Assembly: GCA_001244265.2 (NCBI GenBank)
Contig: CDLV01000005.1
Coordinates: 1,364,001 to 1,428,000 of the forward strand
DNA length: 64,000 bases
DNA from: Microbotryum violaceum
Taxonomy: Eukaryota
Direction of reading: 5' to 3'
In this document: positions 16,850-64,000 of the stretch, piece after piece
Layout: the number at the start of each line of letters is the position of its first letter
How positions within the stretch are numbered: position 1 is the stretch's first letter
The notes under the pieces: model-generated
Seen by the model: only the letters and a program-made list of their open reading frames with translations
Told to the model about the DNA's origin: nothing
Databases searched by the model: none
Position numbers and translations under genes: made by a program

Positions 16850-17048
16850 GGTCAATATATTGCTGTTTCATCCCACTTGTATTCCCGATCATGATTAGTT
16901 ACTAGTTGTTGATATTAGTCGCCTCGCGCGTCTCGAGCCTGCCACGCGCGCGCTCCCTTGGCGCTTCTCTTCTTTCTCCAACTACCTTTACTAGCATCTT
17001 CGGCTCTCGTACTTACGCATCTCGTGCCTCGGCTTCAGGTTCCTAAAA
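16850..17048 (+). repeat. 5' LTR of copia element
   Basis: Closely similar to 20402-20681 apart from an 81-bp segment. Followed directly by the PBS. Confidence 0.92.
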
Positions 17049-18838
17049 GGTTATGAGCCCACCGAGCCTATCAGCGGCGGGCGACCTCGACGACCACAGT
17101 GCTATGGCATCAACGCCTCCACCACCGTCATCAACGTCGATCCATACTAAAGAGCAATTCGACGAGCTGATCAGGAACCAGCGCCCCGCACGGGACGACG
17201 ACGCATTCTCCATGCGTCAGCTCCTACCCCCAGCCAACCCCTCGGTCTTCCCAGACGACTCAAAACTTACGGAGGACAATTACGTTGACTGGGACCTGAC
17301 CATGTCCGTCACCATCGGCCCAATCGTTCAGACGGGCGGCTCGGCGCACGAATGCTAGCTCGCCCTCGCCGCACGCTGTGCTCCCAGCGATGCCCAAGCG
17401 TACTCGGCACTCATCAAGGACTATTTCAGCATGCCACCATGCCTGCCCACTTGGGCTGGTTTCAACGCATGGACGAATCGAGCCATGGTTCTCGTCAACC
17501 ACCTTCGAATGGCCCAGCTCGACTTGGAACAGGCCATCGCGGCCCGGGCCCTTGACGACTTACCTCACGTCTTCGATGGCTGGCGCACGACATTCTACGC
17601 GATGAAAGTTCACGACAACAAGCTGCCGCGTGTCGAACACATCTTCGCTTCGATGGATACTGTCGCTCGAACGTTGCGCAACGAGTCGAACCCGGCCCTC
17701 GTAGCGAAGGCGGTCGCGCCGACCACAAGCGCTGCTCTCGGCAAAAAGGGGAAATGGGATCGATCTGGTCCTGCCCCGAGCAACTGCCCGGCTTGCGGTC
17801 AAGGTAAACTCTGGCTCGACAAGTGTCCGGACTCGCGCAAGCGAGCCAAGTACATCGAGCTCAAGAACGCCATGAAGGCACTCCAAGACTCATCATCATC
17901 GACTGTCGGCCACGCCTCTGTCCAGACACTTAAAAGGTAGCCTAGTGGACTTGGTGGCGACGTCGGCGGCCACGAACGTGGTCGTAATCGATGATGATGA
18001 GCCTTGTAGTGCCTTCATGGCGTTCTTGAGCTCGATGTACTTGGCTCGCTTGCGCGAGTCCGGACACTTGTCGAGCCAGTGTTTGCCTGGACCACCGTGC
18101 CGGCTCACCGACGGGACAAGCTCGACCCAAAAGGGATTCCTCTGGTCTTCGTCGGGTACGATCGACACGCGAAAGCCTACCGTCTTCTTGACCCTTCCTC
18201 GATTCGTGTGAGTCTGGGCCGCTATGTGACGTTCGTTGAAACCGAGTTGCCCTTCGCGATCGCGCCCACCCGAGTGGCGCACCCGTCCATCCCGGGTTAC
18301 AGCCCCCAGCTTCCACCCGTCGAAGCTCCAACACCTGTCGAGCCTCCCCCACGGCCACCGGCATCAACGCCTGTCGAGGCACCCGCGTCGCCGGCTTCGA
18401 CCAGCTCGGCCGACAACGACGACGCCTCATCGACCACGAGCGCAACGACGGAGTCAGCCGTGAACCTGCCGCGACCACCTCCGGATCCAGCTCCACTCGC
18501 CAAAGTCAAGCCGACTTGGGAGTACGGCGACGTCGCCAAGGTTGGCCCCGATCCAGGGAAGTACTGTGAAGTCGACGCTCGAAACATCATTGATGGCCCG
18601 CGGACTCGCCGCCAGCTCGTTCCCACCATAATCACGCGGGAACAGCTCGTCGACGGCCCCGACGGACCCACCGCCTCTTTCAAGAGCCTGCTCCTTGCCT
18701 TCGCATCCACCAAGGCCGGCTTCGCAGATCACGACTTGTCAGTTGTTCGCGATCCGGCAAAACGGGGCGACGTCATTCGATCGGGACAAGAGGACATTTA
18801 GGGCGCTCCGGCACAGGATGGATTCGATTCGCTTCTGA

Positions 18839-19215
<377 letters not shown>

Positions 19216-20401
19216 CTATGTAGAGAGGCTTGTCCATGCGCGTCCCTCAGGGCACCAACCTGCCCGGCAAAATCCTCAAGCTGTCCAAATCCACCTACGG
19301 CCTTCGTCAGGCCGGCCCCATCTGGAACGCTGAGATCGACTCGACTCTGCGGTCCCTCGGATACGTCCCCACCAGGTCCGACATCTGTATCTACCGCCGC
19401 GAACAAGACGGGCACTCTCACTACATTGACTTGTACGTCGACGACTTGCTTTCGGTTGGTCCCTCTACCGCCGAGATCGACCGGGTGCTTGACGCGCTGG
19501 AACTCGCATACGGCATCAAACGTCTCGGACCTGCCGAATATACTCTAGGCATCCAAGTCAAACTTGGACAAGATGGCTCTATCATGCTCTCACAAGAGCG
19601 CTACCTTCCGGACATCCTTGCCAGGTTCCAATTCACCAATGCCAAGCCGGCAAGTGTTCCAATGCAGCCAGGTGTCGCCCTTGACTTTGAGGACTTGGCG
19701 GCCATCCCTCAAGATCGTACGCGCTACTTGCGGGCCATCGGTTCGTTGATGTACGCCGCAGTCGGAAGTCGTCCGGACCTCGCCTTTGTGGTCAGCTACC
19801 TCGCTCGCGTCTCCCAGCAGCCCGGCCCGGAGCATTGGACAGCCATCAAGCAGGTCATCCGTTACATCAAAGGTACGTTGGACTTGGGCCTCACCTATCG
19901 CAAAGCCAACCAACCATTCCATGGCTACTCGGATGCGAACTGCGGAGCCTGTCTAACGACCTCGCGATCGACCATGGGCTACGCGTTCATCTTGTCCGGA
20001 GCCGCAATCGCTTGGTGCTCCAGAGGCGAGCACAGGGTGGCCAAGTCCACTACCGACGCAGAGTACCTTTCTCTTTCGTACACAAGCGGTGATGCCATCC
20101 ACCTGAGCGAACTCCCGAACTCGTGGCTGAACTTGGCGCTCCATTCTCCGGTCCAGTCGTACTCTACGGTAACAACCAAGGTTCGCTGGCTCTTGCGCAG
20201 CACCCGACCAACCATCAGAGGTCTCGTCACGTTCGCATCTTGGAACATACCGTCCGCGAGAGGGTAGCTGAAGGTTCGCTACATCGCCACCGGCGACATG
20301 TTCGCCGATATCTTCACCAAAACCTTGGGTCCCAAGCCGTTCATCTTCCATCGGGAGAATTTGGTTTTGCGAGGTGCAGTGGTAAGACAGCATGGGGTGT
20401 G

Positions 20402-20681
20402 TGTCAATATATTGCCGTTTCATCCCACTTGTATTCCCGATCATGATTAGTTACTAGTTGTTAATATTAGTCGCCTCGCGCGTCTCGAGCCTGCCACGCG
20501 CGCGCTCCCTTAGCGCTTCTCTTCTTCACCCAACTATCTTTACTATCATCTTCGGCTCTCGTACTTACGCTTATCGTGCCTCGGCTTCAGGTTAGTTACT
20601 GTGAAATGCTCGAACTATCTTTACTATCATCTTCGGCTGTCGTACTTACGCATATCGTGCCTCGGCTTCAGGTATCTAAAA
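20402..20681 (+). repeat. 3' LTR of copia element with internal 59-bp duplication
   Basis: Starts TGTCAAT after a degenerate PPT. Units 20532-20590 and 20613-20671. Confidence 0.92.
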
Positions 20682-34579: not shown

Positions 34580-35519
34580 CGCGGTTACGTTTTGGGCGAC
34601 CTCTCCAAGCTATCTTATTGAACCCTCCCACGCTTATTGTAGGAAGGGGTCAAGTTTTGCTGTTGTTTTTAATGATGAAGAAAGAGGGGGCGCGCGCAGA
34701 GGTTTTTTGTTATCGAGTCGGGAGGACGAAGGGTGGCTACCATGTGTTTTATACTGTTGATCTTACCACAGTGACGCTCGCCTTAGCTTTTTTTTCTCTT
34801 CGCGTAGAGCCCTCGCAAACCCTCCTGCTCCTTCCTGCCCCACCCCCTAATTAATTGCGAATTTGCGTTCTCTTTCTTTGATGTGCTCTTCAATTTGTAT
34901 GCATCGAACCCTAACAATGTTTTATAGCAGCTACGGTTTTCTCTTCCTTGACACTTTGTCCCCGAACCTTGCAATGTCCTTGTCTGTCATGCATACTACC
35001 TTCCCTATCCCTGCGTCAAATATTGGGACGGGAGGGGCCAGTGGGACGGAGTGCGCACCGGTTCGCTGGCAGGTCGTAGATCATTTCGATCAGTGTTAGA
35101 TTTCCGCACAGTACTGGTAACTTTCGTTGGTCGAGCAAACGATGAGATTGTGTCGATATGGTGCACGGTCCTAAAGTTTGAAACAGTGAGTTACCAGTGG
35201 GCGGAAAAGAGAAGAAAAGGTACGGAAAAGACTCGCGCGCGCCCCGACCGCACTACCTAATTCCCTAGATCCCCCACTGAGAATAAACATTGTCTAGAAT
35301 GCCTTGATGCGCCAAAGGCCCAAATTCAACCATCAGAAGTCGAGACGGACAGCGGAGCTTAGAGTAAAGCTGAAAAGATTAAAACTTGGGGCGCAGGGTC
35401 TACCCAGGACTAAAGAAATGCGTATGACGCGAGCACTGAGAGCAGCTTGAACAGACACAAGACACAAGACTGGGCGAGACAAAAGGAGCTCCAAAGTACA
35501 GGCCTGGGGGCGACGTTGA

Positions 35520-36900
35520 TCATTCACGCACGGGTACGGTCAAGGTGAACTTGTTGACGAACGAGCAAGTCCTCAACGCGGGTGAAGTGCCTCGCAACTG
35601 CGCATCCAACCAATTGAAAACGCGCTCTCCATAAACAACTTGGGTTCCGACGTGACCTCCCCCTCCGATCTCGGTCGTGAACAAAATCTTGGAGCCTCTG
35701 CCGCACCACGTCTGTGCTGTTTCGTGCGCGGAGGAATAGGGGATCACCTCATCCGTCTTCGAATGGAACATGTAGATGGAGGGCTTGGTCGGGGTTTCGG
35801 TTACGTTGGCCTTCATGTCGGAGAGGGCCAAGTACTTAGCGACCATTTCGTCCGAAAGCAGCCCTTTGCCGATGCTTTGGAAGCTGGTGGAAAGGATGTT
35901 GGTAAAGGCGAAGCGGATGATGTCGGAGGCGCCACATTCGTTGCGGGCAGAAGCGATCGCGGCCTTGCCTTTGGCCGTCCCGACCTGGTCGAAGCGAGCT
36001 TGCAGCTCCGGGAAGGCATTCAGTTGACCCGCAAGACCAGCCACCGCGAATCCCTAATACAAAGCATAAATTTGAAGTCAGGTTTAAGCTTTGAAACGTG
36101 GAGATTGCGGGCGATACTCACGGCGAAAGCACCGCCGTTAAGCTTGTTCAGCGTCGTGGCCATATTCGCGGGCGTCCCCCGAAAGCGAGTGCCTTGATGT
36201 TGAGCTCCGGAGCGTAAGAGTTGTGTAAAGCAGCTGACCATCCCGTTCCGATTGCGCCTCCAGAGTATCCGTAGCCACCCAGAATGACGTCCTTGGGCAA
36301 CCTGAGGAAGTTGATGGCAGCGCGGTAGCCATCGAGGATTTGGTACCCCGATTGATGGCCGACGGAGAAAGCGGAGGTGGTGCCCAAGAAATCGGTGACG
36401 ATGGTTGTCCAACCGCGGAGCAAGATCTGGGTCAATTGGAGATCTTTTATTGGAAAGAGGTCGTAGGGTGAGTACAGAATTGGGTGATGCACCCTTGGGG
36501 TCCGTCATGACCGAATCTTAGCCAAAGACTCACCTCCGTCAGGGCAGAAGAGTTGAAACGGAGAGGTGTTGAAGCAGTAAGAAGGGGCACACTTGGCTGC
36601 AGCTCCATCCTCGTACATGTTGTAAGAAACAAGGTACTTGGGTGAAGCTCGCGCTGACTGAAGAATGGTCGTCACAGTGGACGCCGGCTTGCCCAAAGCA
36701 TCGGTGGTGCGAAAAAGAATTTGAGTACCGGTTACCCCCACTCCTGGGTTGAGTGCCAATCGCGTGCGGTAGACTGTTCCCGGAGCATCATTTGCGAACG
36801 TTGAAGGTGGAACGTAAAAGGGATCGGAATCCGGGGCGGGGAGAGCAGCACTCGTAAGAGAGGCGCACAGAGCGAGAACGCTGGTAGCTGCGCGCAGCAT
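35520..36900 (-). CDS. Secretory lipase (LIP/CalA-like family), type A copy 1; apparent 1-nt frameshift near 36178
   Basis: Signal peptide MLRAATSVLALCASLTSA, PDSDPFY, CAPSY, nucleophile GYSGGA, HSKTDEVIP and GGGH. Has C5 where copy 2 has C6. A further 3' exon is possible. Confidence 0.85.
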
Positions 36901-38166
36901 CGTAGCTCGGTGCAGGTTCATCATGGCGGAAAGAATAAGGAAGATGAGATGAGAAGGTATGGAGAGGAAGCAAAGAAGGGTGTACACTCAGCCTGAAGAA
37001 GTCGCTCGAGTTGGCGGGAATGACTAACAATTGTAGATGGCTTGGCACCGGCGAACTCCGTCGAGTTCAAAAGAAAGTGAGTGACACATCGTGGTACAGT
37101 CGCGCTGACCCGGGTAACACCGCTCCTATCTAGGCTACGTTAGTGTATGCACAGCCCATACTATGCTAGGACCAAGGTGATTGGCGAACTGAGCGCGAGC
37201 GACTGTGTCAGATTTGAGCTCCTCCCGGAGTCGATGCCAGGCTCACCAAGCTCGGATTCCGTGCACGGGTGGCGCTAATGAAACGTCCGTACGACCGGCG
37301 ACTCGGAGAATCGCTTGGAACGAGCTTAGGCACAAATGTGAGCGGTGCCTTGATTAGCACGAAGTCAAGCTCTGGCTTCCTATTTATGCTATACCTGTCG
37401 CCCTAGATGTTGCAAGGGTGTAGGTTCCCTGGACTGCTAAGTTGAGCCCCTAAGCCGGTCTGCGGGAGCAAGCCGTTCTCCAGCGGCCTGACATGTCCAA
37501 GCTCTACGAATGCAGAGTACAAGCAGGAGAATGGACATTTCCAGAAGCGTCTCGATTAAAAGCTTTAGGAGAGGCTACGCGGCAGCTGGGACGTTCTCGC
37601 GTTCGTCTGGGAGAACATAGAGGCCGCGCAGCAGCGCTAAGCTCTGGTGCCTGCACAGCTGGACGCCCGGGCCGTGCAAAACCTCGACCTCACAGCCGAG
37701 AAGTCCGCGTCCGTGCACGGTCAGGCGTTGATTTCCCCTCCTGTAAGAGTCAGTCGACTTGAAAATTCTCTAGACGAATAACATGTGATCCTGGCTTGTT
37801 CCGGACATGGTCGCCGGATGCGTTCGAGCGACGAGCAGAATGATGAGATCGAAGTCTCCGTCATGAGTCCCCAGTTCTTGAGGGCACACCTCCAGTAACA
37901 CCTAAAATGTAGATCGTGTGTTATCCATAGCCAAAAAATATAACAACCGGGACCATCATAGGCAATAGCGCCCTTTAACCGGCACAATGGAGCACCTGAC
38001 AAAACCTCTTATGCGTGATCGACAAAGAAGCCGAGATCACCCGCGACGACCGTCTAGCCGAGTTCTCGGACAAGTGCTCTCGAGGTATCTATCTTTTCGA
38101 GGTTTTGTAAGGGTCAGATTGTTGGGTGGCTGCAGATTTCAGCCCAACGACATCATATGCGATCGC

Positions 38167-40587
38167 TGTCATTTGATATGTGTCTGTGCCTGTGGTTGTA
38201 TCTGCGCGGATGCGCGTGGGTTTAGTCATTAGTCACTTTGGTATTGGAGTTTGCTCTGTTTAAGTTAGGGAGCGCGCGAGGCTTTCTTCCCGCGCGGCTG
38301 TTTACTCTTGGGAGCTTTCTCATCACTCGCTTTACATTGTGGTCCTGACTTCTCAGCGTCGTGCACCCTCACCTATCGGAAGCTTAGTTACTGGAATACT
38401 TTATTATCACTCGCTCTACATTGTGGTCCTGACTTCTCGGCGTCGTGCACCTCCACCTATCGGAAGGCTTTACTTCCGCGCTCGCACCGTTTCTGCAATA
38501 GGTTATGAGCCAACGGGTAGCTTAGGAGGCCCGGGTCAGCAAAGCGATTCCCATCGCACCACCACCATTGGAATGGACACCGAAACACCCTCCACCGAAA
38601 CGAGTGAACGTGGGTTACATGTCCCAATTCTTCGAGCCACCAACTACAAAAGACGTCGACGAGTGGCGAGTGGAAGCCGCGCGATCGATTGTCGATTACG
38701 ACCTGAAGGCCTGAAGAACGGCCTTCGCAGCGACGTCCAACGGCCTCGATACCAGACGACCGATAAGACGTCGACGCCAATCCATGTAGTTTGTGGCGCG
38801 AAGGACGGAGACATGTGTTCCACGCTCACTCGTTTCGGTGGAGGGTGTATCGGTGTCCATTCCGATGGTGGTGCGATGGGAATTGCTTTGCTGACTGGGG
38901 GCTTCGGCACTGCCCGTTAGACTCATAACCTATCGCAGAAAAGATGCGAGCGCGGAAGTAAAGCCTTCCGATAGGTGAGGGTGCACGACGCCGAGAAGTC
39001 AGGACCACAATGTAGAGCGAGTGATGAGAAAGCTACCAAGAGTAAAAAGCCGCGCGGGAAGAAAGCCCCGCCCGCTCCCTACTTAAACAGAGCAAACTCC
39101 AATATTAGAGTGACTAATGGCTAAAACGCACGCGCATCCGCGCATTTTTATTTATTTGATAGACTTCATTAACAGCATAATTATATTAATACCTAGAAAT
39201 CTTCGGAAAAGTCGGAGGGAATGCATATTAGAGTGACTAATGGCTAAAACGCACGCGCATCCGCGCATTTTTATTTATTTGATAGACTTCATTAACAGCA
39301 TAATTATATTAATACCTAGAAATCTTCGGAAAAGTCGGAGGGAATGCTGTTACGCACACTGGCAGAAGCCAGTAGTGTAGGACTCATTGACCTTGAACCA
39401 GGATCAACCATACCCACTAAAACCCCCTTTGGTGTCTTACAGCGACACTAGGCGACCCTTGGACTCCTGAATAGAGGCTCGAAGCCCCTCGAACTCCGCT
39501 TCGGTGATCGGTTCCAAAGGATCCGACGAGAATCGGCGACGGCGACAGAGCTTCCAGATCGAGTGAGAGAAGAGCACTCGTAGTTCGACAAGTCGACGTT
39601 CCGAGCGAGACACGACTGGACATACAAAGTCCACAAAAACTGGGTGGGGGGTCGGGGACAGAGCAGACCAGGGACGCCGGGCAAATGGGCAGCCGATCGC
39701 AAGGTGGGCCAGGCACTCGGGTGCTTCCGAGAGGCACATCACACAGGAGGCAGATCGATTGTTGGGGTGCGGGCTGGTTGGGGAGGCGACTTGGCTTCCC
39801 GGATGGAGGGACCCCAGGGAGAGAAGGTGGCCGATATCCTCGGCGTCCGAGTGAACCCGGCGAACCTTGCGCAAAGCCTTCCACCAAGCGTTCCAACGTT
39901 GTTCAGGCAGATCGAATACCTTCTGGTGTCCCTTGGGGAAGATAGGAGGGAAGATGAAGACTTGGTGGCGTTTGGACGCGTTCACAAACGAAGACGGGTC
40001 ATCACCTCACCATCGGGCCCTCGAAAAAGCGTCGGGTTTACCGAGATTTGTATTCCGTGGCCCGCTGGAAAGAAGAGTACGTGCGTCGCCCATTGCTCGA
40101 GGTTCTGGCTCTTGGAGAGTTCCGGGGGATTGAGCCAGGCTTCGAAGTATCGGACCCAACGAGCAGGAAGAAGTTTTGTCGTCTTTCTCACCGCATGGTC
40201 CCATTTTTGGGGAGGATGGCAAAAGTATGCCCACCAGATCCAGATCCAGGGGCGACGATGCTGGTTGGGGGCCGGTCTGGACAAGGTGAAAGGTGCTGGT
40301 TCGTTCAGTGCCTGGAGGCGGATGCGGATGTCGAAGAGGTGGCGTGTGAAGCAGCCGTCCGGGGCCCGGAGCTGGAAGACCCACTTCGCGTGATCGATCG
40401 CTAGACGCCGAGGCAGATCAATCAAGCCGAAGCCGCCGTGATTGAGAGGGATGCAGAGGCGCGACCGGGAGACCTTCGGACGTCGCTGAGTACCATCCGA
40501 AGCTCGACCGTGAATGGCGAGCATGGCGGCCTCCTCGACCTCCTTGACAACGCAGATACCACAGGCACAGACACATATCAAATGACA
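38167..40587. mobile_element. Foldback insertion built from two inverted copia 5' ends (LTR-PBS-gag start), with nested LINE fragment
   Basis: Inverted termini TGTCATTTGATATGTGTCTGTGCCTGTGG, TSD ATCGC at 38162-66 and 40588-92, empty site at 47440-44. PBS at 38501 (+) and 38920-30 (-). Confidence 0.9.
39145..40550 (-). mobile_element. 5'-truncated non-LTR retrotransposon (L1/Tx1-like ORF2 C-terminus), frameshifted
   Basis: LCIPLNHGGFGLIDL and zinc knuckle CVMC..E...HLAIGCP. A-rich tail (TTTTTATTTATTT on +). CGCA duplicated at both junctions within the host LTR. Confidence 0.85.
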
Positions 40588-41036
40588 ATCGCTCATACTC
40601 GTTATTCGTCGAATCAATCAGCGCCATAGGCTGCCAGTACTTGGCAGGGAAAGCCGCGCGAAGAGTGGTGGAGGTCTCGGTGGATTGACAAACAGGCCAG
40701 GGCGCGCTTTGCATAGATGTCAAGGTGATTTGGAACAAGGGACAGGCTTTTCCGCCGTGGAAGTCGCATTACACTGAGCCGGACGACGTTACTCGACGAT
40801 CAAATGAGCCCCTGTTCTTGACTTACGCCCGTGCTCGCGGTCGAAACACGATTCTGAGGCTTTAATGACCCACTGACGAAAACGCTCTTCGGAACTGTGC
40901 AAGATCTTCAAGTACATGTATTCCATAGCTACATGGGACGACATATTCGTACAATGGACAAGATCAAGAACCTAACGCTATCCGGCCGCTGTACAATCGC
41001 TTCATAGTCGAGACGACAAGGCGAACATCACGAGCA

Positions 41037-42550
41037 CTACATTCGCACGGGAAGCGCTTTCGTCGACTGGGTCTCGAACGAACAACTCGAGATCGCCGCC
41101 GAGGTGCCCCTCAACGAGTTGTCCAACCAATCGATCGTCATGTTTCCATACGAGATTTGCGTCCCCAAATGACCACCACCACCAAGCTCAGTAATAAACG
41201 TGATCTTGGCTCCATCGCTGCACCACGTTTGAGCGGTCTTGAGTGCCGAAGCATAAGGGATCACTTCGTCCATGGTGGAATGGAACATGAGGATGGAAGG
41301 TTTGGTCGGCGTCTCGCTCGCGACCGAGCCCATCGTTGACATCGTCAAGTACTCGGACACGATGGGATCAAAGAGGAGTTGACTACCTAGGGATTGGAAG
41401 TCGGTCGAGAGGAAGTCGGTGTAGGCAAATTCGACGATGTCCGCGGCGCCGCATTGGGAGTGGCCGGTGATGATGGCCGCTTTCCCCTTGGCCGTCGCGA
41501 TTTGTGAGAAGCGAGCGTTGAGCTCGGGGTAGCTCGCGACTTGGCCGGCGAGACCACCAACAGCAAAACCCTGAATTGACACAAACATGCGATGAAGGTC
41601 AGCGCCATGGGAGAAAGAACGAAGCGGTCAACTTGAAGCAAGGAAACTCACGGCGAACGCGCCGGCGTTGAGCTGATAAAACGTCGACGTCATATTCGAC
41701 GGCGTACCCCCGAACGCCAACGCCTTGATGTTCAACTCGGGTGCATAATCGTTCTGCAACGCCGCGGACCATCCCGTACCAATCGCACCACCCGAGTACC
41801 CATATCCACCGAGGACGACGTTCTCGGACAATTTGAGGAACTTGATCGCGGCGCGGTACCCGTCCAGGATTTGGTAACCTGATTGATGCCCGACGGAGAA
41901 GCTCGAGGTCTTCCCTCCAAAGTCGGTAACAATCACGATCCAACCCTTGGTCATGAAGTAGACGAGTTGACCGTCTGTAGGAAGCGAGGAAGCGAGAGGA
42001 TAACGGCGAGTCAGCGAGGCAGATCACGTGACCGTTGGGCCTGCGGGGGAAGGGGGATCCGGGCCGGCACCTGGTAGACGCCGAGAGAAAACCTTGAACT
42101 TGGGTCCAAGAGATAGGGACTACTCACCGCCATCGGGACAGAATAATTTCTGAGGAATGGTGTTGAAACAATAGGAAGGAGCACACTGAGGTGCTGAAGC
42201 ATCCTCATACATGTTGTAGGCCACGAGGTAGTTTTTTGACGAATTTAACGTTTGGAGAATGGTTGTGACCGATGTCGTCGGCTTGCCGAACGCGTCGCTT
42301 GTGCGAAACAAGATTTGAGTACCTTTACGACCAAAGCCGGGGTTGAGGGCAGCTCGTGAACGGTATACGGTTCCGGGGTCATCTTTTGCGAAAGTTGAAG
42401 GGGATGGTAGAATGGGTCGACGTCGGGTGTGGGGATGAGGAATGTCGCTGGCGAAGTTAAATCCAGGATCGGTGCGGCGGAAACGAGTACGGTGAGAGCG
42501 AGGATGCTGCTCGTGACGCGGGCGAACCAAGATGAACGCGGGGACAACAT
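41037..42550 (-). CDS. Secretory lipase type B copy 1; apparent 1-nt frameshift near 42400
   Basis: Signal peptide MLSPRSSWFARVTSSILALTVLVSA, PDVDPFY, CAPSY, GYSGGA, HSTMDEVIP and GGGGH. Confidence 0.85.
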
Positions 42551-42580
42551 CTTTATGAAGGTACGAAGAGGTAGGAATAG

Positions 42581-42680
42581 GTATGAAGAAGTATGAAGAG
42601 GTATGAAGAGGTATGAAGAGGTAAAAAGAGCTAGGAAGAGGTAAAAAGAGCTAGGAAGAGGTAAAAAGAGCTAGGAAGAG
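42581..42680. repeat. Minisatellite (GTATGAAGAR)x4 + (GTAAAAAGAGCTAGGAAGAG)x3 just upstream of lipase B
   Basis: Read directly from the sequence. Confidence 0.9.
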
Positions 42681-43414
42681 GGATGAAGAGGGATGAAGAT
42701 GAAAGACGATGGCACACAGAACGAAAACAAACAGAAAAGCGGGGCCAGTCCTCCGAGGTCCTCCGGCGTCCTCCGAATGATCAGCGACGCCGAGGGAAGT
42801 GCAGAATTTCGATCACCTCGAGCCTTCTAGTACGTTATTCAGGGTTGCATCTCACACGTGCTCAATCAGGTCAACAATCTCGGGCTTGAGATGATCTCGA
42901 GCTTGAAATAAAAGATCCCCGCACCTGGGGCTTGGAAAACGTTCACAGGCGACAGCTCCGAAGGCTGAATTGCACCCGGCTGACCACTACTTACTGATGC
43001 CGACAATTTTGAGTTCCGATTTCGGATCAGGATTTGAATTTCAGCTGGTCTGCAAAAAAGTGGCGATCCTTCTCGAGCAACGAGGCGCCGTTATAATAGC
43101 CGTCCAGCATTGCGTTGTCATCAACGAGTTGGCCGCTCGGACGCCAATATCCGAGTGTGTCCGCGTGCCTCCTCTTCACAGATAGGGGCTTGACACGAAG
43201 TCTCCGCAATTCCACTCCTAGTAGAATTTGTTACAACTTCGATAGGGTTACTTTCCCACCGTAATATTAACATAAAACGCCAAACAGCGTGTCCGACGTC
43301 CAACGTTGAACGATCGCCGATGAGCTCAATTGAACAATGGGCAAGCGTCTCGCTGCCGACGATCTTTCTCCGTGGGGCCGCCCCGCCTTTCCTTTTTCGG
43401 TACCCTGTGGTCCA

Positions 43415-43712
43415 TCATAACCGAGCCAATAAACCCTTGATGGCGGAGGCGACTTGTTTTCTTGTTGCTCTGGCGTTGCCTAGGGAGGGCATAAACAGAA
43501 CAATGGATGCATCAGTCAGTAAACCATCCAGAAGTGAAAAGCTGATGAACTGGCCAATTTGGCAGGAGTGGGAAACTCACCCTGTGACCAAATCCTCCAC
43601 CCCTGCTCATCCTTCAACCCCTCCACATCACCCCCTTTCCATTTCTCCACCTTGAGCACTTGATCCTCTTGCACGCCCGCGAACAAGACCTTCCTCAACT
43701 TCCTTTCAACCT
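43415..43712 (-). pseudogene. Truncated duplicate of the PPX1 3' end
   Basis: Diverged match to 50406-50702 (QEDQVLKVEKWKGG, RKQVAS). Upstream exons are absent. Confidence 0.85.
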
Positions 43713-43800
43713 TCTGTCATGCATACTACCTTCGCTATCAATGCGTCAAATATTGGGACGGGCCGGGAGGGGCTGGGACGGAGTGCGCACCGATTGGTCA

Positions 43801-44144
43801 TTTGTATATGGTCATATGGGTTGTCCCGTCCTTCATCTTATTATTGTTCCTATTTATGGTACTTGATGTTGAGCCCATAAGGCGGGTCATGAACGCCTCT
43901 GGGACCTCAATATCCTTTCCTTACTTGTCTCTAATCTCGCTCTTTATTAGCTTTACGCTTCACTTTCTAGCCTTCCGCGGGTCTGTCCCTTAGTCTCTGG
44001 CCACTCTGTTCTTTGTTCATTGGACTGACTCGTAGTCATCATCAGTTCAACTCTTGGAAATCTTACCTTACTCGGTTCTAGTCCCTGTTGATCGGACTGT
44101 GTCGTGGTCATCATCAGGTTCCACTTGAGAATATTTCTGCAACA
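43801..44144 (+). mobile_element. Probable degenerate solo LTR inserted in a short dispersed repeat
   Basis: Interrupts a copy of the 34970-35160 repeat. Flanked by GGTCA/GGTCG, ends TTCTGCAACA, and carries an internal 32-bp imperfect duplication. Confidence 0.55.
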
Positions 44145-44776
44145 GGTCGTAGGTCATATCGGTGTTAGATTTCCGCACAGTTCTGGTAACTTTCGTTGCT
44201 CGGCCAAACGATGGGATTGTGTCGATACGGTTGTCTTTCCCACACTTTGTCCCTGAATCTTGGGGAAAACGCAATGTCCTTGTCTGTCATGCATACTACC
44301 TTCACTATCACTGCGTCAAATAGTGGGACGAGAGTGGCTGGGACGGAGTGCGTACCGATTTTGCTGGCAGATCGTAAATCATATCGATCAGTGTTCGATT
44401 TCCGCACAGTTCTGGTGACTTTCGTTGGTCGGCCAAACGATGAGATTGTGTCGATACGGTGCACGGTCGTAAAGTCTAAAACAGTGAGTTACCAGTGGGC
44501 GGAAATGAGAAGAAAAGCTAACGGAAAAGATTCGCGCGCGCGCCGAATGCCTAGAATGCCTTGATGCGCCAAACGCCCAAATCCAACCATCAGAAGTCGA
44601 GACGGACAGCGGAGCTTAGAGTAAAGCTGAAAAGATTAAAACTTGGGGTGCAGGGTCTACCCAGGACTAAAGAAATGCGTATGACGCGAGCACTGAGAGC
44701 AGCTTGAACAGACACAAGACACAAGACTGGGCGAGACAAAAGGAGCTCCAAAGTACAGGCCTGGGGGCGACGTTGA

Positions 44777-46158
44777 TCATTCACGCACGGGTACGGTCAA
44801 GGTGAACTTGTTGACGAACGAGCAAGTCCTCAACGCGGGTGAAGTGCCTCGCAACTGCGCATCCAACCAATTGAAAACGCGCTCTCCATAAACAACTTGG
44901 GTTCCGACGTGACCTCCCCCTCCGATCTCGGTCGTGAACAAAATCTTGGAGCCTCTGCCGCACCACGTCTGTGCTGTTTCGTGCGCGGAGGAATAGGGGA
45001 TCACCTCATCCGTCTTCGAATGGAACATGTAGATGGAGGGCTTGGTCGGGGTTTCGGTTACGTTGGCCTTCATGTCGGAGAGGGCCAAGTACTTAGCGAC
45101 CATTTCGTCCGAAAGCAGCCCTTTGCCGATGCTTTGGAAGCTGGTGGAAAGGATGTTGGTAAAGGCGAAGCGGATGATGTCGGAGGCGCCACATTCGTTG
45201 CGGGCAGAAGCGATCGCGGCCTTGCCTTTGGCCGTCCCGACCTGGTCGAAGCGAGCTTGCAGCTCCGGGAAGGCATTCAGTTGACCCGCAAGACCAGCCA
45301 CCGCGAATCCCTAATACAAAGCATAAATTTGAAGTCAGGTTTAAGCTTTGAAACGTGGAGATTGCGGGCGATACTCACGGCGAAAGCACCGCCGTTAAGC
45401 TTGTTCAGCGTCGTGGCCATATTCGCGGGCGTCCCCCCGAAAGCGAGTGCCTTGATGTTGAGCTCCGGAGCGTAAGAGTTGTGTAAAGCAGCTGACCATC
45501 CCGTTCCGATTGCGCCTCCAGAGTATCCGTAGCCACCCAGAATGACGTCCTTGGGCAACCTGAGGAAGTTGATGGCAGCGCGGTAGCCATCGAGGATTTG
45601 GTACCCCGATTGATGGCCGACGGAGAAAGCGGAGGTGGTGCCCAAGAAATCGGTGACGATGGTTGTCCAACCGCGGAGCAAGATCTGGGTCAATTGGAGA
45701 TCTTTTATTGGAAAGAGGTCGTAGGGTGAGTACAGAATTGGGTGATGCACCCTTGGGGTCCGTCATGACCGAATCTTAGCCAAAGACTCACCTCCGTCAG
45801 GGCAGAAGAGTTGAAACGGAGAGGTGTTGAAGCAGTAAGAAGGGGCACACTTGGCTGCAGCTCCATCCTCGTACATGTTGTAAGAAACAAGGTACTTGGG
45901 TGAAGCTCGCGCTGACTGAAGAATGGTCGTCACAGTGGACGCCGGCTTGCCCAAAGCATCGGTGGTGCGAAAAAGAATTTGAGTACCGGTTACCCCCACT
46001 CCTGGGTTGAGTGCCAATCGCGTGCGGTAGACTGTTCCCGGAGCATCATTTGCGAACGTTGAAGGTGGAACGTAAAAGGGATCGGAATCCGGGGCGGGGA
46101 GAGCAGCACTCGTAAGAGAGGCGCACAGAGCGAGAACGCTGGTAGCTGCGCGCAGCAT
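44777..46158 (-). CDS. Secretory lipase type A copy 2 (frame intact)
   Basis: Nearly identical to 35520-36900. GYSGGA...AFGGTPAN reads in one frame. Confidence 0.9.
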
Positions 46159-47891
46159 CGTAGCTCGGTGCAGGTTCATCATGGCGGAAAGAATAAGGAA
46201 GATGAGATGAGAAGGTATGGAGAGGAAGCAAAGAAGGGTGTACACTCAGCCTGAAGAAGTCGCTCGAGTTGGCGGGAATGACTAACAATTGTAGATGGCT
46301 TGGCACCGGCGAACTCCGTCGAGTTCAAAAGAAAGTGAGTGACACATCGTGGTACAGTCGCGCTGACCCGGGTAACACCGCTCCTATCTAGGCTACGTTA
46401 GTGTATGCACAGCCCATACTATGCTAGGACCAAGGTGATTGGCGAACTGAGCGCGAGCGACTGTGTCAGATTTGAGCTCCTCCCGGAGTCGATGCCAGGC
46501 TCACCAAGCTCGGATTCCGTGCACGGGTGGCGCTAATGAAACGTCCGTACGACCGGCGACTCGGAGAATCGCTTGGAACGAGCTTAGGCACAAATGTGAG
46601 CGGTGCCTTGATTAGCACGAAGTCAAGCTCTGGCTTCCTATTTATGCTATACCTGTCGCCCTAGATGTTGCAAGGGTGTAGGTTCCCTGGACTGCTAAGT
46701 TGAGCCCCTAAGCCGGTCTGCGGGAGCAAGCCGTTCTCCAGCGGCCTGACATGTCCAAGCTCTACGAATGCAGAGTACAAGCAGGAGAATGGACATTTCC
46801 AGAAGCGTCTCGATTAAAAGCTTTAGGAGAGGCTACGCGGCAGCTGGGACGTTCTCGCGTTCGTCTGGGAGAACATAGAGGCCGCGCAGCAGCGCTAAGC
46901 TCTGGTGCCTGCACAGCTGGACGCCCGGGCCGTGCAAAACCTCGACCTCACAGCCGAGAGGTCCGCGTCCGTGCACGGTCAGGCGTTGATTTCCCCTCCT
47001 GTAAGAGTCAGTCGACTTGGAAATTCTTTAGACGAATAACATGTGATCCTGGCTTGTTCCGGACATGGTCGCCGGATGCGTTCGAGCGACGAGCAGAATG
47101 ATGAGATCGAAGTCTCCGTCATGAGTCCCCAGTTCTTGAGGGCACACCTCCAGTAACACCTAAAATGTAGATCGTGTGTTATCCATAGCCAAAAAATATA
47201 ACAACCGGGACCATCATAGGCAATAGCGCCCTTTAACCGGCACAATGGAGCACCTGACAAAACCTCTTATGCGTGATCGACAAAGAAGCCGAGATCACCC
47301 GCGACGACCGTCTAGCCGAGTTCTCGGACAAGTGATTGATAAGCATCGCTATCTTTCTCGAGGAATATATCTTTTCGGGGTTTTTTAGGGGACAGATTGT
47401 TGGGTGGCTGCAGATTTCAGCCCAATGACATCATATGCGATCGCTCGCACTCGTTATGCATCGACTCAATCAACGCCGCAGGCTGCCAGTACTCGGTAGG
47501 AAAAGCCGCGCGAAGACTGATGGAGGTCTCGGTGGATTGACCAACAGACCAGCGCACGCTTAGCATAGATGTCAAGGTGATTTGGAACAAGGGACAGAAT
47601 TCTCCGCCGCGGAGGTAGCACTTGCATTACACTAAGCCGGCCGACGTTGCTCGACGATCAACTGAGCCCCTGTCCCTGACTTGCGCCCGTGCGCGCGATC
47701 AGAACGCGATTCTGAGGCTTTGATGACCCACTGAGGAACTGTGCAAGAACTTCAAATACATGTATTCCATAGCTACATGGGACGATATATTCGTACAATA
47801 GACAAGATCAAGAACCTAACGCTATCCGGCCGCTGTACAATCGCTTCATAGTCGAGACGACATGGCGAACATCACATTCTGTACACGAGCA

Positions 47892-49403
47892 CTACATTCG
47901 CACGGGAAGCGCCGCCGTCGACTGGGTCTTGAACGAACAAGTCGAGGTCGCCGGCGACTTGCTCCTCAACGAGTTGTCCAACCAATCGATCGTCATGGGT
48001 CCATACGAGATTTGCGTCCCCAAATGACCACCACCACCAAGCTCAGTAATAAACGTGATCTTGGCTCCATCGCTGCACCACGTTTGAGCGGTCTTGAGTG
48101 CCGAAGCATAAGGGATCACTTCGTCCATGGTGGAATGGAACATGAGGATGGAAGGTTTGGTCGGCGTCTCGCTCGCGACCGAGCCCATCGTCGACATCGT
48201 CAGGTACTTGGCCACGATAGGATCAGAGAGGAATTGACTACCTAGGGATTGGAAGTCGGTCGAGAGGATGTCGGTGAAGGCGAATTTGACGATGTCCGCG
48301 GCGCCGCATTGGGAGTGGCCGGTGATGATGGCCGCTTTCCCCTTGGCCGTCGCGATTTGTGAGAAGCGAGCGTTGAGCTCGGGGTAGCTCGCGACTTGGC
48401 CGGCGAGACCACCAACAGCAAAACCCTGAATTGACACAAACATGCGATGAAGGTCAGCGCCATGGGAGAAAGAACGAAGCGGTCAACTTGAAGCAAGGAA
48501 ACTCACGGCGAACGCGCCGGCGTTGAGCTGATAAAACGTCGACGTCATATTCGACGGCGTACCCCGAACGCCAACGCCTTGATGTTCAACTCGGGTGCAT
48601 AATCGTTCTGCAACGCCGCGGACCATCCCGTACCAATCGCACCACCCGAGTACCCATATCCACCGAGGACGACGTTCTCGGACAATTTGAGGAACTTGAT
48701 CGCGGCGCGGTACCCGTCCAGGATTTGGTAACCTGATTGATGCCCGACGGAGAAACTCGAGGTCTTCCCTCCAAAGTCGGTAACAATCACGATCCAACCC
48801 TTGGTCATGAAGTAGACGAGTTGACCGTCTGTAGGAAGCGAGGAAGCGAGAGGATGACGGCGAGTCAGCGAGGCAGATCACGTGACCGTTGGGCCTGCGG
48901 GGGAAGGGGGACCCGGGCCGGCACCTGGTAGACGCCGAGAGAAAACCTTGAACTTGGGTCCAAGAGATAGGGACTACTCACCGCCATCGGACAGAATAAT
49001 TTCTGAGGAATGGTGTTGAAACAATAGGAAGGAGCACACTGAGGTGCTGAAGCATCCTCATACATGTTGTAGGCCACGAGGTAGTTTTTTGACGAATTTA
49101 ACGTTTGGAGAATGGTTGTGACCGATGTCGTCGGCTTGCCGAACGCGTCGCTTGTGCGAAACAAGATTTGAGTACCCTTACGACCAAAGCCGGGGTTGAG
49201 GGCAGCTCGTGAACGGTATACGGTTCCGGGGCATCTTTTGCGAAAGTTGAAGGGGGACGGTAGAATGGGTCGACGTCGGGTGTGGGGATGAGGAATGTCG
49301 CTGGCGAAGTTAAATCCAGGATCGGTGCGGCGGAAACGAGTACGGTGAGAGCGAGGATGCTGCTCGTGACGCGGGCGAACCAAGATGAACGCGGGGACAA
49401 CAT
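47892..49403 (-). CDS. Secretory lipase type B copy 2; three apparent 1-nt deletions (pseudogene or sequencing error)
   Basis: Same motifs as B1. Single-base losses near 48563, 48990 and 49231 relative to B1. Confidence 0.75.
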
Positions 49404-49436
49404 CTTTATGAAGGTACGACGAGGTAGTAGGAATAG

Positions 49437-49646
49437 GTATGAAGAAGTATGAAGAAGTATGAAGAGGTATGAAGAGGTATGAAGAGGTATGAAGAGGTAT
49501 GAAGAGGTATGAAGAGGTATGAAGAGGTATGAAGAGGTATGAAGAGGTATGAAGAGGTATGAAGAGGTATGAAGAGGTATGAAGAGGTATGAAGAGGTAT
49601 GAAGAGGTAAAAAAAGCTAGGAAGAGGTAAAAAGAGCTAGGAAGAG
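49437..49646. repeat. Minisatellite (GTATGAAGAR)x17 + 20-mer x2 upstream of lipase B copy 2
   Basis: Read directly from the sequence. Confidence 0.92.
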
Positions 49647-50405
49647 GGATGAAGATGAAAGACGATGGCACACAGAACGAAAACAAACAGAAAAGCGGGG
49701 CCAGTCCTCCGAGGTCCTCCCTTGTACTTCCCTGACGGCGTCCTCCGAATGATCAGCGACGCCGAGGGAAGTGCAGAATTTCGATCACCTCGAGCCTTCT
49801 AGTACGTTATTCAGGGTTGCATCTCACACGTGCTCAATCAGGTCAATCATCTCGGGCTTAAGACGATCTCGAGCTTGAAATCAAAGCTCCCCGCACCCGG
49901 GGCTTGGGGAACGCTCGGCGACAGCTTCGAAGGCGAGCGCTTGACCAATTGCTGATGCCGACAAATTTTTTAGCTCCGATCTCGGATCGGGATTTGAATT
50001 TCAGCTGGTCTGCAAAAAAAATGGCGAACCTTCTCGAGCAACGAGGCGCCATTATAATAGAGGGTCGAGACCCGTCCATCATTGCGTTTTCATCAACGAG
50101 TTCGCCGCTCGGACGCCAATGTCCGAGTGTGTCCACTGCACGTGCCTCCTCTTCAAAGATAGGGGCTTGACACGAAGACTCCGCCATTCGAACTCCTAGT
50201 AGAATTCCAAGTTTCCATTCACAACTTTGACAGGGCTACTTCTCCACCATACTACCTAACATAAAACGCCAAACAGCGTGTCCGACGTCCGACGTCGAAC
50301 TAACGGGGACGAGCTCAATCGAACAAGGGTGCATGCTTCTCGCTTCCGACGATCGTCCTCCATCGGGCCACCCCCGCTCTTCCTTCCGAGGTACCCTTTG
50401 GTCCA

Positions 50406-51894
50406 TCACAACCGAGCCAATAACCCCTTTATGACGGGGGCCACTTGTTTTCTTGTTGCTCTGGCGTTGCCTACAGAGGGCATACAGAGAAACAAGGGAT
50501 GCATCAGTCCAGTAAATCTTCCAAAATGAAATGCTGATGAACCGGCCAATTTTGGCAAGAGTGGGCAACTCACCCTGTGACCAAACCCTCCACCCCCGCT
50601 CATCCTTCAACCCATCCACAGCACCCCCTTTCCATTTCTCCACCTTGAGCACTTGATCCTCTTGCAAGCCCGTGAACAAGACCTCCCTCAACCGTTCAAC
50701 CTTGTCCCCTCCCCCCAACATAAAGTACGATTTCCCTCGCATGCACAGCTTTCCCTTCCGAGTTCTCCTCATTGATTTCGGAAAAGGAGGTCAAGATTCC
50801 CGCGAAAGAGAGGTTCCTTTCCTTCATCCAACCTAAAAGGTCCTGTTCAATCCCTTGCCACCCTTGGCGTCCCAGCGCCTTATCCTTTTCAAGCCAAGCC
50901 TTTAATCCCAAAGGAACGGTCGAAAGACCATATTTCCACCCTGATTCTTGATATTCTTTGTAATCCCTGCGTAAGAGATCTCTACCACTCATCGAAGAAA
51001 TATCGATCTTTTTCTTCATGAGGACTTGATGACGAGCGATCAAGGCCGTCATAGAAGGTCCCATGACGGCACTAGGGGCTGCACTTCCGGAGCGGAACGA
51101 GCTGAGGGGGAGCAGGAATTGAACGGCGGCGAGGTCCTTGGGGTGGCTTTACCTCCGTTCGTAGAGGGTTTGAGGGAGGTGTCGATGGCTATTGTGGAGA
51201 GGAGGAGATCGGCCAGGGGGTCGGCACCGAGACGGCGTATTCGGGGGGTAAGAGGGGGGAGAAGTAGGAGAGAACCAAGGAGGTGCACGATCCGACGGGT
51301 TCGATCAGACGAGGTTCGGCGGAGGTGTGCTTCCCTTCATCGGCGTGGTGGTCGATAATGGCCGTAACGGAGGTGTCCCATGGCGGTTTACCTGATGTAG
51401 ATGGCGTCTTTGATTCTGAGCGGAACACGGGCAAGAGGACGTTGTGGTCATCGAGGGCAAAGTTGGCGCCTCGTGCTGCGAGCACGGCGGGATCGGGGAT
51501 GTCATCGATGCAGAGCAAGGCCTCAGCGGGGACGTTGGCCTGTTCGAGTGCGAATTGGTTCTCGGGTCGGAGGTAGAGGTCCGATCGGGCGGTCATGATC
51601 AGGGGCACCGAGAGCGATTTGGGTGGGGTGATGATGTGAAGGAAGTAGGCGAACGCGATGGAGGAGACCAACGAGTCGAGGTCTGTACGAGATGAGATGG
51701 AGTTTCAGGTAAGAGCCAGAAACAAAAAAGATGGCACCAGTCGGAGTGGACTGACCTCCAGCTTGATTGCCGACTGTGATGGTCCACTCGGACAAGTCGG
51801 CACCGGGTTGGTGGAGCGAGTCCAAGAAGGCCTGCTTGGACGTGGTCAGGAAATCGAGCAGGGGCGGGGTGGCGGGCACGGATGATTTGGGCAT
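50406..51894 (-). CDS. PPX1: Exopolyphosphatase (DHH/DHHA2 family)
   Basis: VGNQAG|DLDSLVSSI, DDHN, IIDHHADE, VGSCTSLV, IAIDT, LLRRDYKEY and C-terminal TRKQVAP. Confidence 0.92.
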
Positions 51895-61259: not shown

Positions 61260-61644
61260 CGCGAAACTTACGGCTGCCGTAGGGCACAACTTGCCACAAA
61301 AGAACAGTGTCTCTGCAAGGACTAAAGTAACGCTGGCTCCCTTCTGATTTCAGATTGAAATTATAAGCTTTTTTTGCTGTGTGGTCCAGTGTAAGGCCAG
61401 CCCCTTCACAACTGGACTACACACAGAGCTCCCTTGCGCCTTAAATGGCTCGCTTCTGATTCCGCATCCATTGAATTTGTTCGCTTTTTTGGCTGTGTAG
61501 TCCAGCTGTGAGGGGCTAGCAAAAAACCTAACAATTTCAATCGATGCTGATTGAAATCAGAAGGGAGCCAGCGTTACTTTGGTCCTTGCAGACACACTTT
61601 TCTTTTTTGGCAAGTTGTGCCCTACGGCAGCCGTAAGTTTCGCG
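61260..61644. repeat. Non-coding inverted repeat (MITE-like or foldback)
   Basis: CGCGAAACTTACGGCTGCCGTAGGGCACAACTTGCCA at 61260 is inverted exactly at the 61644 end. Imperfect pairing extends about 150 bp inward. Confidence 0.85.
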
Positions 61645-62578: not shown

Positions 62579-62936
62579 GACCCAGCACGCTACTTCCCAC
62601 CCAATCAACGCGACGACGGTGGTGATCCAGCGTCGACGGTAAGGAAGGTCGACTTTTCGATGTGTCGAGGCCTTGGTGCCTCCAAGCAAAAGAGGTCGCA
62701 AAATATTATTCACAGTATCGTCATTCCCGTAGAGGGCAAAAATATGCTCCCGTCTGCCGAACCTCGAAACGCTCTTTGCCCTCTACGGGAATGACGATAC
62801 TGTGGAGAATATTTTGCGTCCTCTTTTGCTTGAAGGCACCAAGGCCTCGACACATCGAAAAGTCGACCTTCCTTACTGTCGAAGCTGGATCACCACCGTC
62901 GTCGCGTTGATTGGATTGGAAGTAGCGTGCTGGGTC
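62579..62936. repeat. Inverted repeat, about 162-bp arms, 34-bp loop
   Basis: 62579-62740 versus 62775-62936, with scattered mismatches. Confidence 0.92.
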
Positions 62937-63289
62937 CACCTCGAGGGACGGGAGGCAGGTTGCGGCGCATCGTCATTGCCAGCCGCGCGCGCGCTGCAGT
63001 GCATGCAGCGCCTCGCTCAGCATCCACTCGGCCGAGAATTTGACAGGCGCAGGGGCACCCACCGGTGCTGTTCCAGGTAAGGATTGCCATATATAGTCGC
63101 TCTCCAGGAACTCCTTGGCTCGAGTGGCCGCTAGCTTGCGCACGTCCTTGAGATTCGTCGAAACATAGATCTTGGCCATCGAGACCAGCTCGGACTGCCA
63201 GTTCGGAGATGGCGAACAATTTGATGGTCATCGTGGCATCATAGTAGGAGAAGCGGGTCAGAGAGGATCGCGTTTCTTGCCAAGCGCGG

Positions 63290-63821
63290 CCACTTGCGTT
63301 CACCTCGTAGTTCTCTAAGTACTTTGGGTCTTGGCGCAATTCATACGGAACCACTTCCTGGAAGCCAGCACCACAGTACATGCGCGACAGGATGAATCGA
63401 AAGTCGCTTAGATGATCGGGTTGGATCTTGAATAGCTGGTATTGTCGTACCAGGGCCCTCAGCTCGTCCCGGGCCTCCTGTTGGTCGATCGGCTCGCCAT
63501 TGTACGACGTTAGCTCCTGATGCGATACTCCGGACCAGCTCGTCAGTGTACCTTACAGTCTTCCATTGTGGCTCTTCCTTTGTCTTCCTTCGCTTCCGAG
63601 AGGTCGCACAAAGGCGGGCCGATCGACCAACAGGAGGCCCGGGACGAGCTGAGAGCCCTGGTACGACAATACCAGCTATTCAAGATCCAGCCAGACCACC
63701 TTAGCGACTTTCGATTCATCCTGTCGCGCATGTACTGTGGTGCTGGCTTCCAGGAAGTGGTTCCGTATGAATTGCGCCAAGACCCAAAGTACTTAGAGAA
63801 CTACGAGGTGAGCGCTAGTGG
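63290..63821. repeat. Inverted repeat, about 219-bp arms, 94-bp loop; third partial copy at about 60490-60570
   Basis: 63290-63508 versus 63603-63821. Both arms encode MYCGAGFQEVVPYELRQDPKYLENYEV on opposite strands. Confidence 0.92.
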
Positions 63822-64000
63822 CGAAGCGGCGGCATGGAAGCAACTCGAGCATGGGCAAAGGACAGGACGTAGTGGCTGGCCGGTTGCCAAAGGCGACCAA
63901 CGGGCGCGCCGAGCGAGTCGAAAGGCGAGTGCGGTGGGAATCATTCCCTCTTACTAGAACCAACGATTCTCGCTCGCAACATCGCCTGTTGCTCGCTCGA

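Follow-up and report, generated by a model that had tools for sequence, protein, structure and literature searches.

Two copia 5' ends in inverted orientation at a Microbotryum violaceum locus: a single decayed insertion and its possible origin as a reverse-transcription chimera

Introduction

How could two 5' ends of a copia retrotransposon come to lie tail to tail between one pair of target-site duplications (TSDs)? The question was raised by a stretch of 64,000 nucleotides of Microbotryum violaceum DNA (assembly GCA_001244265.2, contig CDLV01000005.1, positions 1,364,001 to 1,428,000), referred to here as the window and numbered from its first letter. At 38167-40587 it holds an element in which two front ends of copia, each with a long terminal repeat (LTR), a primer-binding site (PBS) and the start of gag, face each other, so that the LTRs are inverted, unlike the direct LTRs of the parent. 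The element is a real, single, decayed insertion and is not part of a mobile family. The explanation that we favour, tentatively, is that a reverse-transcription chimera with two U3 (unique 3') ends was formed as a one-off event and integrated once.

Structure and borders of the element

The element runs from TG (38167) to CA (40587) between two perfect copies of ATCGC, a match with a probability of about 0.001 by chance. In a paralogous lipase unit the same flanks are otherwise continuous around a single ATCGC, and because this paralogous site is empty, the borders are fixed independently of the duplication. The TG..CA bounds, the duplication and the single ATCGC at 47440-47444 were all part of the preliminary description and were confirmed, and its coordinates for the arms, the PBSs and the LTRs (left 38167-38500; right 38931-39144 plus 40551-40587) also hold. 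Read support was taken from short-read contigs of four runs (24 listed), which came from four studies. The features are as follows.

38162-38166, plus strand: left TSD, ATCGC; the empty-site joint (38161 to 40588) is present in three of the four runs
38167-38500, plus strand: long form of the LTR, left copy (334 bp, TG...TA), which contains an internal tandem repeat of 88 bp
38501-38511, plus strand: left PBS, GGTTATGAGCC; the same motif lies behind the LTR of an unrelated copia at 17049
38512-38647, plus strand: left leader and first 25 gag codons, of the subfamily type common to the M. silenes-dioicae copy P0006
38648-38661, unstranded: junction patch of 14 nt, the last 2 nt (CG) overlapping the right arm
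38660-38918, minus strand: right leader and gag start (to ...FHSPL), of the subfamily type common to the M. saponariae copy P0002
38919-38930, minus strand: right PBS, beginning at 38930
38931-39144, minus strand: right LTR, short form, 3' part (ends ...GCGATA)
39145-40550, minus strand: later insertion, a 5'-truncated long interspersed nuclear element (LINE) piece plus a tandem repeat
40551-40587, minus strand: first 37 bp of the right LTR (U3 tip; terminal CA on the plus strand), 39/40 identical to the solo LTR in L001 over 40548-40587
40588-40592, plus strand: right TSD, ATCGC; the junction contigs of X1 and X3 show 0 differences here, and the first codons of the gene model P0001 read across it
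47440-47444, plus strand: unoccupied target site of the paralogous copy, within the duplicated lipase unit

The left arm has, with its LTR and PBS, 147 nt of leader and gag, and the right arm, on the minus strand, consists of a 247-bp LTR, the PBS and 269 nt of leader and gag. Without the later additions (the LINE piece and the repeat) the unit measures 1011 bp. Gag starts are its only coding content, and the relatives P0003-P0005 carry the pol domains. The minus-strand gag peptide VLRATNYMDWRRRL is present in the right arm, whose gag start is missing 8 codons and carries a frameshift relative to the relatives. Positions 38662-38785 form the unpaired loop of the inverted structure, and the target ATCGC sits within the palindrome GCGATCGC. 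The motif GGTTATGAGCC is presumably primed by a cleaved initiator-Met tRNA; no tRNA gene was found in the 64-kb window. The 88-bp repeat (38315-38470) is found towards the 3' end of the left LTR. The gene model of P0006 skips from the LTR straight to the first G of the PBS in a splice-like manner.

Identity of the termini

The metagenome contig L001 carries a solo LTR of the same family (245 bp, TG...GCGATA, between CTTTC duplications), the sole match in a metagenome-contig scan for the terminus. In an end-to-end alignment the left LTR showed 227 matches, 18 substitutions and 89 gap columns against this solo LTR. As the solo LTR gives TA as the normal right end of the family, the CA at 40587 belongs to a left end in inverted orientation, and both termini of the element are U3 ends of a genuine copia LTR. 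Of the earlier proposal that a molecule with two U3 ends was integrated, the nature of the two ends is thus supported. The exact 5-bp duplication fits one integrase event, and we infer a single concerted integration.

The parent was recognised in several ways. In a 4768-nt contig of run X15 the beginnings of gag and of the LTR are connected, which is the arrangement expected of a parent with direct LTRs, and the parent encodes a DDE integrase (PF00665). P0003-P0005 carry the copia protease, integrase and reverse transcriptase families, and the relatives encode a full copia polyprotein. All gag relatives were Microbotryum proteins (5 matches among 107 candidates), which makes an anther-smut fungus the most probable host, and the long LTR form is present in other family copies too. 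A viral-contig scan with the LTR word gave 0 matches. When the plus-strand open reading frame across the junction was used in protein searches, 2 of 718 candidates matched (P0002 and P0006), and 1 of 202 in a second candidate set (P0001, an M. silenes-dioicae gene model); none of these three shows the central junction.

Two other kinds of element with inverted ends were considered and set aside. The possibility had been raised that the termini belong to a terminal inverted repeat (TIR) transposon such as Ginger; the solo LTR ending in TA and the full-length copia polyprotein of the relatives exclude this, because each terminus is the U3 end of a genuine copia LTR, and an integrase-like transposase domain was absent from the 5 translated frames inside the element. 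DIRS-type elements have inverted LTRs, a tyrosine recombinase and no TSD; such an element was ruled out by the TSD and by the DDE integrase of the parent.

Divergence of the two arms

The LTR arms differ by 14 substitutions in 246 aligned sites (5.7%) and by the 88-bp repeat, with 6 changes private to the left and 8 private to the right against L001. The adjacent flanks differ from the paralog at 8/150 sites upstream and at 18/150 and 19/139 downstream, and given this flank divergence the LTR divergence alone could represent decay from identity. The leader and gag portions differ at 23/144 sites, which is more than the LTRs (Fisher p 0.0012), and 7 of the 11 gag differences between the arms fall at third codon positions (p 0.039). 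The LTRs, which had been called clearly diverged, are therefore diverged only modestly, the larger difference being that of the leader and gag.

Nine residues that differ between the arms were compared with independent copies in other species. P0006 agreed with the left arm at 6, with the right at 1 and with neither at 2, and P0002 agreed with the right arm at 5, with the left at 3 and with neither at 1. In the leader, P0006 reads as the left arm and P0002 as the right arm. From these comparisons we conclude that the arms represent two pre-existing source copies or subfamilies. This gives new support to the earlier suggestion of an aberrant chimeric complementary DNA (cDNA), and argues against a simple fold-back.

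A more elaborate fold-back was also weighed, in which chromosomal repair replaced the 3' part of one old copy with a mirror of its front, and one arm was later altered by gene conversion. Fold-backs are common in the transposable element (TE) relics of the window, the 5.7% divergence of the LTRs is compatible with decay where the adjacent flanks are 5-14% off the paralog, and an antisense gag patch lies near the same site in P0002. Against this, both breakpoints must fall exactly on the LTR tips, and the different subfamily leaders and the long and short LTR forms need an extra event. The palindromic target also offered a 5-nt ATCGC overlap whose use would alter the flank, and the flank is unaltered. 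We regard this origin as very unlikely.

Two further lines of comparison between the arms were followed. Derived bases shared by the arms against the main parent (38551, 38589, 38593) were dropped, because relatives in other species carry the residue of the arms at the sole amino-acid-changing site, so that these bases look ancestral. A greater likeness of the arms in U3 than in R-U5 (the repeat and unique 5' regions), as predicted by one priming model, was not seen.

The central junction

The left arm agrees with gag as far as 38647. Of the 14 nt that come next, 13 match the minus strand around CGTCGACG, whereas the forward strand is matched only within the palindrome CGTCGACG; for the 6 non-palindromic bases the post hoc p is about 0.005. 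At 38660 the parent sequence parts from the element, as seen from loose ends in X3 and X11, so that the right arm extends into gag by about 110 nt more than the left arm. The patch and the 2-nt overlap together imply two switches, one of them with a 2-nt CG overlap.

The arms had been described as meeting near this palindrome, with a second copy placed at 38768. The first copy does lie at the junction. The start of the second is shifted by 1 nt, to 38769, and this copy is no more than the corresponding gag site within the right arm. The two copies as a designed pair were rejected, as a single gag site is represented once in either arm. At the protein level only, P0002 shows at residues ~100-120 sense gag, then an antisense gag peptide, then LTR-derived residues. 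This inverted patch, which is independent of the one described here but lies near the same place in gag, might hint at a switching hotspot.

Read support and copy number

The central junction was found in contigs of three of the four runs (X1, X3 and X11, from three studies). The centre contigs of X1 (38460-38949) and X3 (38457-38949) show 0 differences and each covers both PBSs, and that of X11 (38554-38873) shows 1 difference. Among the contig pieces listed, the right junction was found in two of the four runs (X1 and X3), and the LINE joints were not present. Run X15, which is only guessed to be RNA, gave no cover at 38708-38909 and was used neither for nor against the structure.

The whole might be a chimera of assembly or amplification: no contig spans the entire element, and an exact 123-bp repeat in it could be an assembly slip. 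With centre contigs from the runs of three studies at 0, 0 and 1 differences, and with arms that are 84-94% alike and not identical, such an artefact is scarcely credible. The gene model P0001, from an independent assembly, starts in the right flank and continues through the LTR tip, the LINE piece, the right LTR and the right gag. It differs from the window by about six substitutions and a 5-residue indel, and because it matches with differences, the right half is old enough to be common to a diverged assembly.

Copy number was judged from contig depth, a crude measure. In X1 the depths of the centre, the right junction and the empty paralog were 226.8, 226.7 and 236.6, and in X3 they were 6.0, 7.3 and 5.5; in X11 the centre stood at 19.6 against 24.5 and 36.4. 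Relative to the single-copy references, the centre therefore had a depth of 1.0 (X1), 0.83-1.1 (X3) and 0.5-0.8 (X11), and the internal contig of the parent had 9-13 times the depth of this roughly single-copy centre. The approximately single-copy depth of the centre in all three runs that hold the junction is the reason why the element is not assigned to a mobile family. The preliminary description had offered a non-autonomous foldback family as one of two possibilities, and this branch is not supported, given the same depths; it had also noted that a single genomic copy would make the structure a one-off event, and a single copy is what the contig depth of the centre indicates.

A non-autonomous inverted-LTR element, spreading now or once by means of copia integrase or a TIR transposase, would have the observed build, which resembles that of a miniature inverted-repeat TE (TGTCA ends and arms of about 250 bp). 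One M. silenes-dioicae contig moreover has P0001 annotated twice. Both copies begin in the same flank codons, which suggests a segmental duplication, and three protein searches yielded no second inverted copy. As the inverted element has no polypurine tract plus direct 3' LTR, normal copying of its RNA is impossible. With the depths given above, these points largely refute a non-autonomous family for this genome and leave it highly improbable; the element is dead as a mobile element.

Proposed origin

The reverse-transcription chimera that we favour may have arisen as follows. RNAs of two copia subfamilies would have been packaged in one particle, where the plus-strand DNA of one subfamily (U3-R-U5-PBS-gag start) stalled. 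A short slip at the gag palindrome would have left the 14-nt patch, and the slipped strand could then have primed on plus-sense nucleic acid of the other subfamily through the 2-nt overlap. Copying in both directions would give a linear DNA of about 1.0 kb that began and ended with U3, and the integrase of the family would have inserted this DNA in one concerted step. The LINE piece would have entered the right LTR later, after which the locus decayed passively. Three literature precedents bear on this scheme: reverse transcriptases, including that of Tf1, are reported to switch templates on 2-nt overlaps with C or G (PMC3035444), composite copia insertions of grasses with one TSD have been ascribed to template switching (PMC1950507), and in vitro the concerted integration of two separate, identical donor ends is on record (PMC11054761).

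Several observations weigh against this course of events. The sequence holds no evidence that the join preceded integration, and a patched junction with a micro-overlap fits host break repair as well. Overlaps of 2 nt often arise by chance, and at the second switch there is an overlap only if one later substitution is assumed. Outside the leader the subfamily signal is not clear, as the 3 sites at which P0002 sides with the left arm all lie in gag. The left junction was not among the contig pieces listed, and X1 and X3, with 0 differences, may be the assembled strain itself. Finally, the TE relics of the window hold 5 other fold-back pairs with loops of 27-199 nt, and because fold-back junctions with similar loops occur in these relics, such joints are also made by the chromosome itself. 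The pairs are located as follows.

17797-18093: fold-back pair
19140-19302: fold-back pair
61260-61644: fold-back pair
62579-62936: fold-back pair
63289-63822: fold-back pair

The last three are apparent TE relics with arms of 93-220 nt that are 95-96% complementary and loops of 34-199 nt. The first two belong to a second, unrelated copia (16851-20681), which has direct LTRs and two inverted patches: 17988-18093 mirrors 17797-17902 and is followed by a jump to the integrase end, and 19140-19207 mirrors 19235-19302. In this copia the LTR next to the PBS at 17049 has AAAA at its end instead of CA.

The join might instead have followed integration. In one such scenario the integrase captured the U3 ends of two separate cDNAs with a 5-bp stagger, and host repair trimmed the tails and joined them via the palindrome. 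The exact TSD, the two subfamilies and the repair-like junction would all be accounted for together, and the fit to the sequence is equally good. Two plus-sense tails could pair with each other only through a self-complementary word, and such a word is present at the junction (8-bp palindromes occur at 287 of the 64,000 window positions); the U5 end of the family, which has no CA, could have favoured the use of U3 ends. In vitro, the concerted integration of two separate identical donor ends is reported as routine (PMC11054761), but no report of it in vivo was found in the literature searched. About 4 kb would also have to be trimmed from each tail and a double-strand break survived. The neighbouring copia likewise has no CA at U5 yet shows the normal direct-LTR layout, so non-CA ends are evidently usable. 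We hold this two-donor route to be rather unlikely.

A further scenario explains the two subfamilies directly: two full-length copies in opposite orientation would have entered one and the same 5-bp site independently, and a near-symmetric deletion would then have removed the centre, which was unstable. Near-symmetric deletions are typical of long palindromes. About 9 kb would have to be lost in one deletion, and the same 5 bases must have been hit twice, as no flank was lost or gained against the empty site. In Drosophila, inverted tandems of LTR elements that arose by double insertion, with a palindromic target in the junction, are reported (PMC5932611), and the target here also lies in a palindrome; the one other target seen for the family, CTTTC, shares no motif with it (n = 2). 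This origin, too, seems unlikely to us.

The later LINE insertion

The gap between the two parts of the right LTR, for which the coordinates had been given correctly but no name, is filled by a 5'-truncated LINE piece and a 123-bp repeat. The LTR is interrupted 37 bp from its tip by the LINE piece, which has an A-rich tail and a 4-nt TGCG duplication. The exact 123-bp tandem repeat (39102-39224 and 39225-39347) covers the LINE tail and 43 bp of the LTR; it may be a recent duplication or an assembly slip. We take 39145-40550 to be a LINE partly on its motifs, beside the tail, a very high summed contig depth and a weak zf-RVT match (E 0.015, below the Pfam cut-off). In a Pfam scan neither the gag pieces nor one LINE frame matched any family. 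The inserted piece may disturb the promoter of the right LTR. On L001, at 2200-1780 (minus strand), another copia 5' end (LTR, PBS GGTTATGAGCC and gag start) is broken by a LINE-like piece with a T run.

Hairpin potential, genomic setting and significance

An RNA running through 38203-39144 is predicted to fold at -697 kcal/mol (z -40.9 against 20 shuffles), and the arms contain perfect Watson-Crick runs of 46, 33, 23, 23 and 20 bp. If transcribed from either LTR, such an RNA would be expected to fold into a hairpin of about 400 bp directed against its own family. Of the earlier proposal that convergent LTR promoters would yield double-stranded or hairpin RNA, the folding potential is the part that the sequence shows. 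In M. lychnidis-dioicae, core genes of RNA interference (RNAi) are reported, namely Dicer, Argonaute and an RNA-dependent RNA polymerase (PMC4469406), as are active copia bursts (PMC10502011).

The window contains tandem secretory-lipase genes (PF03583, E 2.6e-19) that are duplicated as two units (35062-50700). The lipase paralogs are mostly 98-100% identical, and 5-14% diverged within ~300-750 bp of the insertion. This pattern looks as if the insertion blocked gene conversion between the units.

The locus may serve as a clean example from nature of copia integrase inserting a DNA that has two left ends and stems from two sibling elements. It would add an inverted geometry to the direct one known for template-switch chimeras. 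Such products escape LTR finders that search for direct repeats. Insertions of this kind would be ready-made hairpin templates in a fungus reported to have RNAi genes. As a single decayed copy the locus is of moderate importance, unless small RNAs or more cases come to light. No description of a natural inverted-LTR insertion with two U3 ends was found in the literature searched, the coverage of which was incomplete and included few subscription journals. U3:U3 substrates have reportedly been used in work on Ty1.

A broader and quite unlikely possibility is that the integration of DNAs with two like ends is a recurrent activity of the copia machinery of Microbotryum, in part because ends of separate cDNAs are paired in vivo. 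One-step, TSD-bounded inverted loci would result, with hairpin RNA that silences the parent, and the present locus, kept in more than one lineage, would be a self-made silencer. If this were true, the locus would model the passage from an LTR element to a TIR-like element.

Comparison with known systems

The closest parallels are the complex insertions of Sabot and Schulman 2007 (PMC1950507), in which, as here, copia sequence fused from two parents lies within one 5-bp TSD and is read as a single integration of a reverse-transcription chimera. Those insertions are reported to have three direct LTRs, two complete cores, near-identical outer LTRs and normal U3 and U5 ends, whereas the present element has inverted LTRs and U3 at both ends, and has lost nearly all coding sequence. 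The inverted tandems of Drosophila, such as two Rover copies (PMC5932611), resemble the present locus in having two opposite LTR elements at one site with a palindromic target. They are described as keeping a target copy in the junction between full ends; the junction described here lies in gag and has no target copy.

Inverted transposon front ends with potential for hairpin RNA or convergent transcripts are also seen in Mu killer of maize and in the antisense nested EVD of Arabidopsis, as described in PMC11624286. According to the same source, Mu killer silences in trans, whereas the present locus offers folding potential alone, and EVD, as a nested insertion, has remnants that lie beyond its inverted part. 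Ginger transposons (PMC2836005) share with the element TGTNR-type termini, inverted ends of 40-270 bp and integrase-type chemistry, and are reported to have their own transposase, mostly 4-bp TSDs and families. In contrast, the TGTCA ends of the element described here are the U3 tip of a copia LTR, and lead into whole LTRs, followed by PBS and gag, in one copy.

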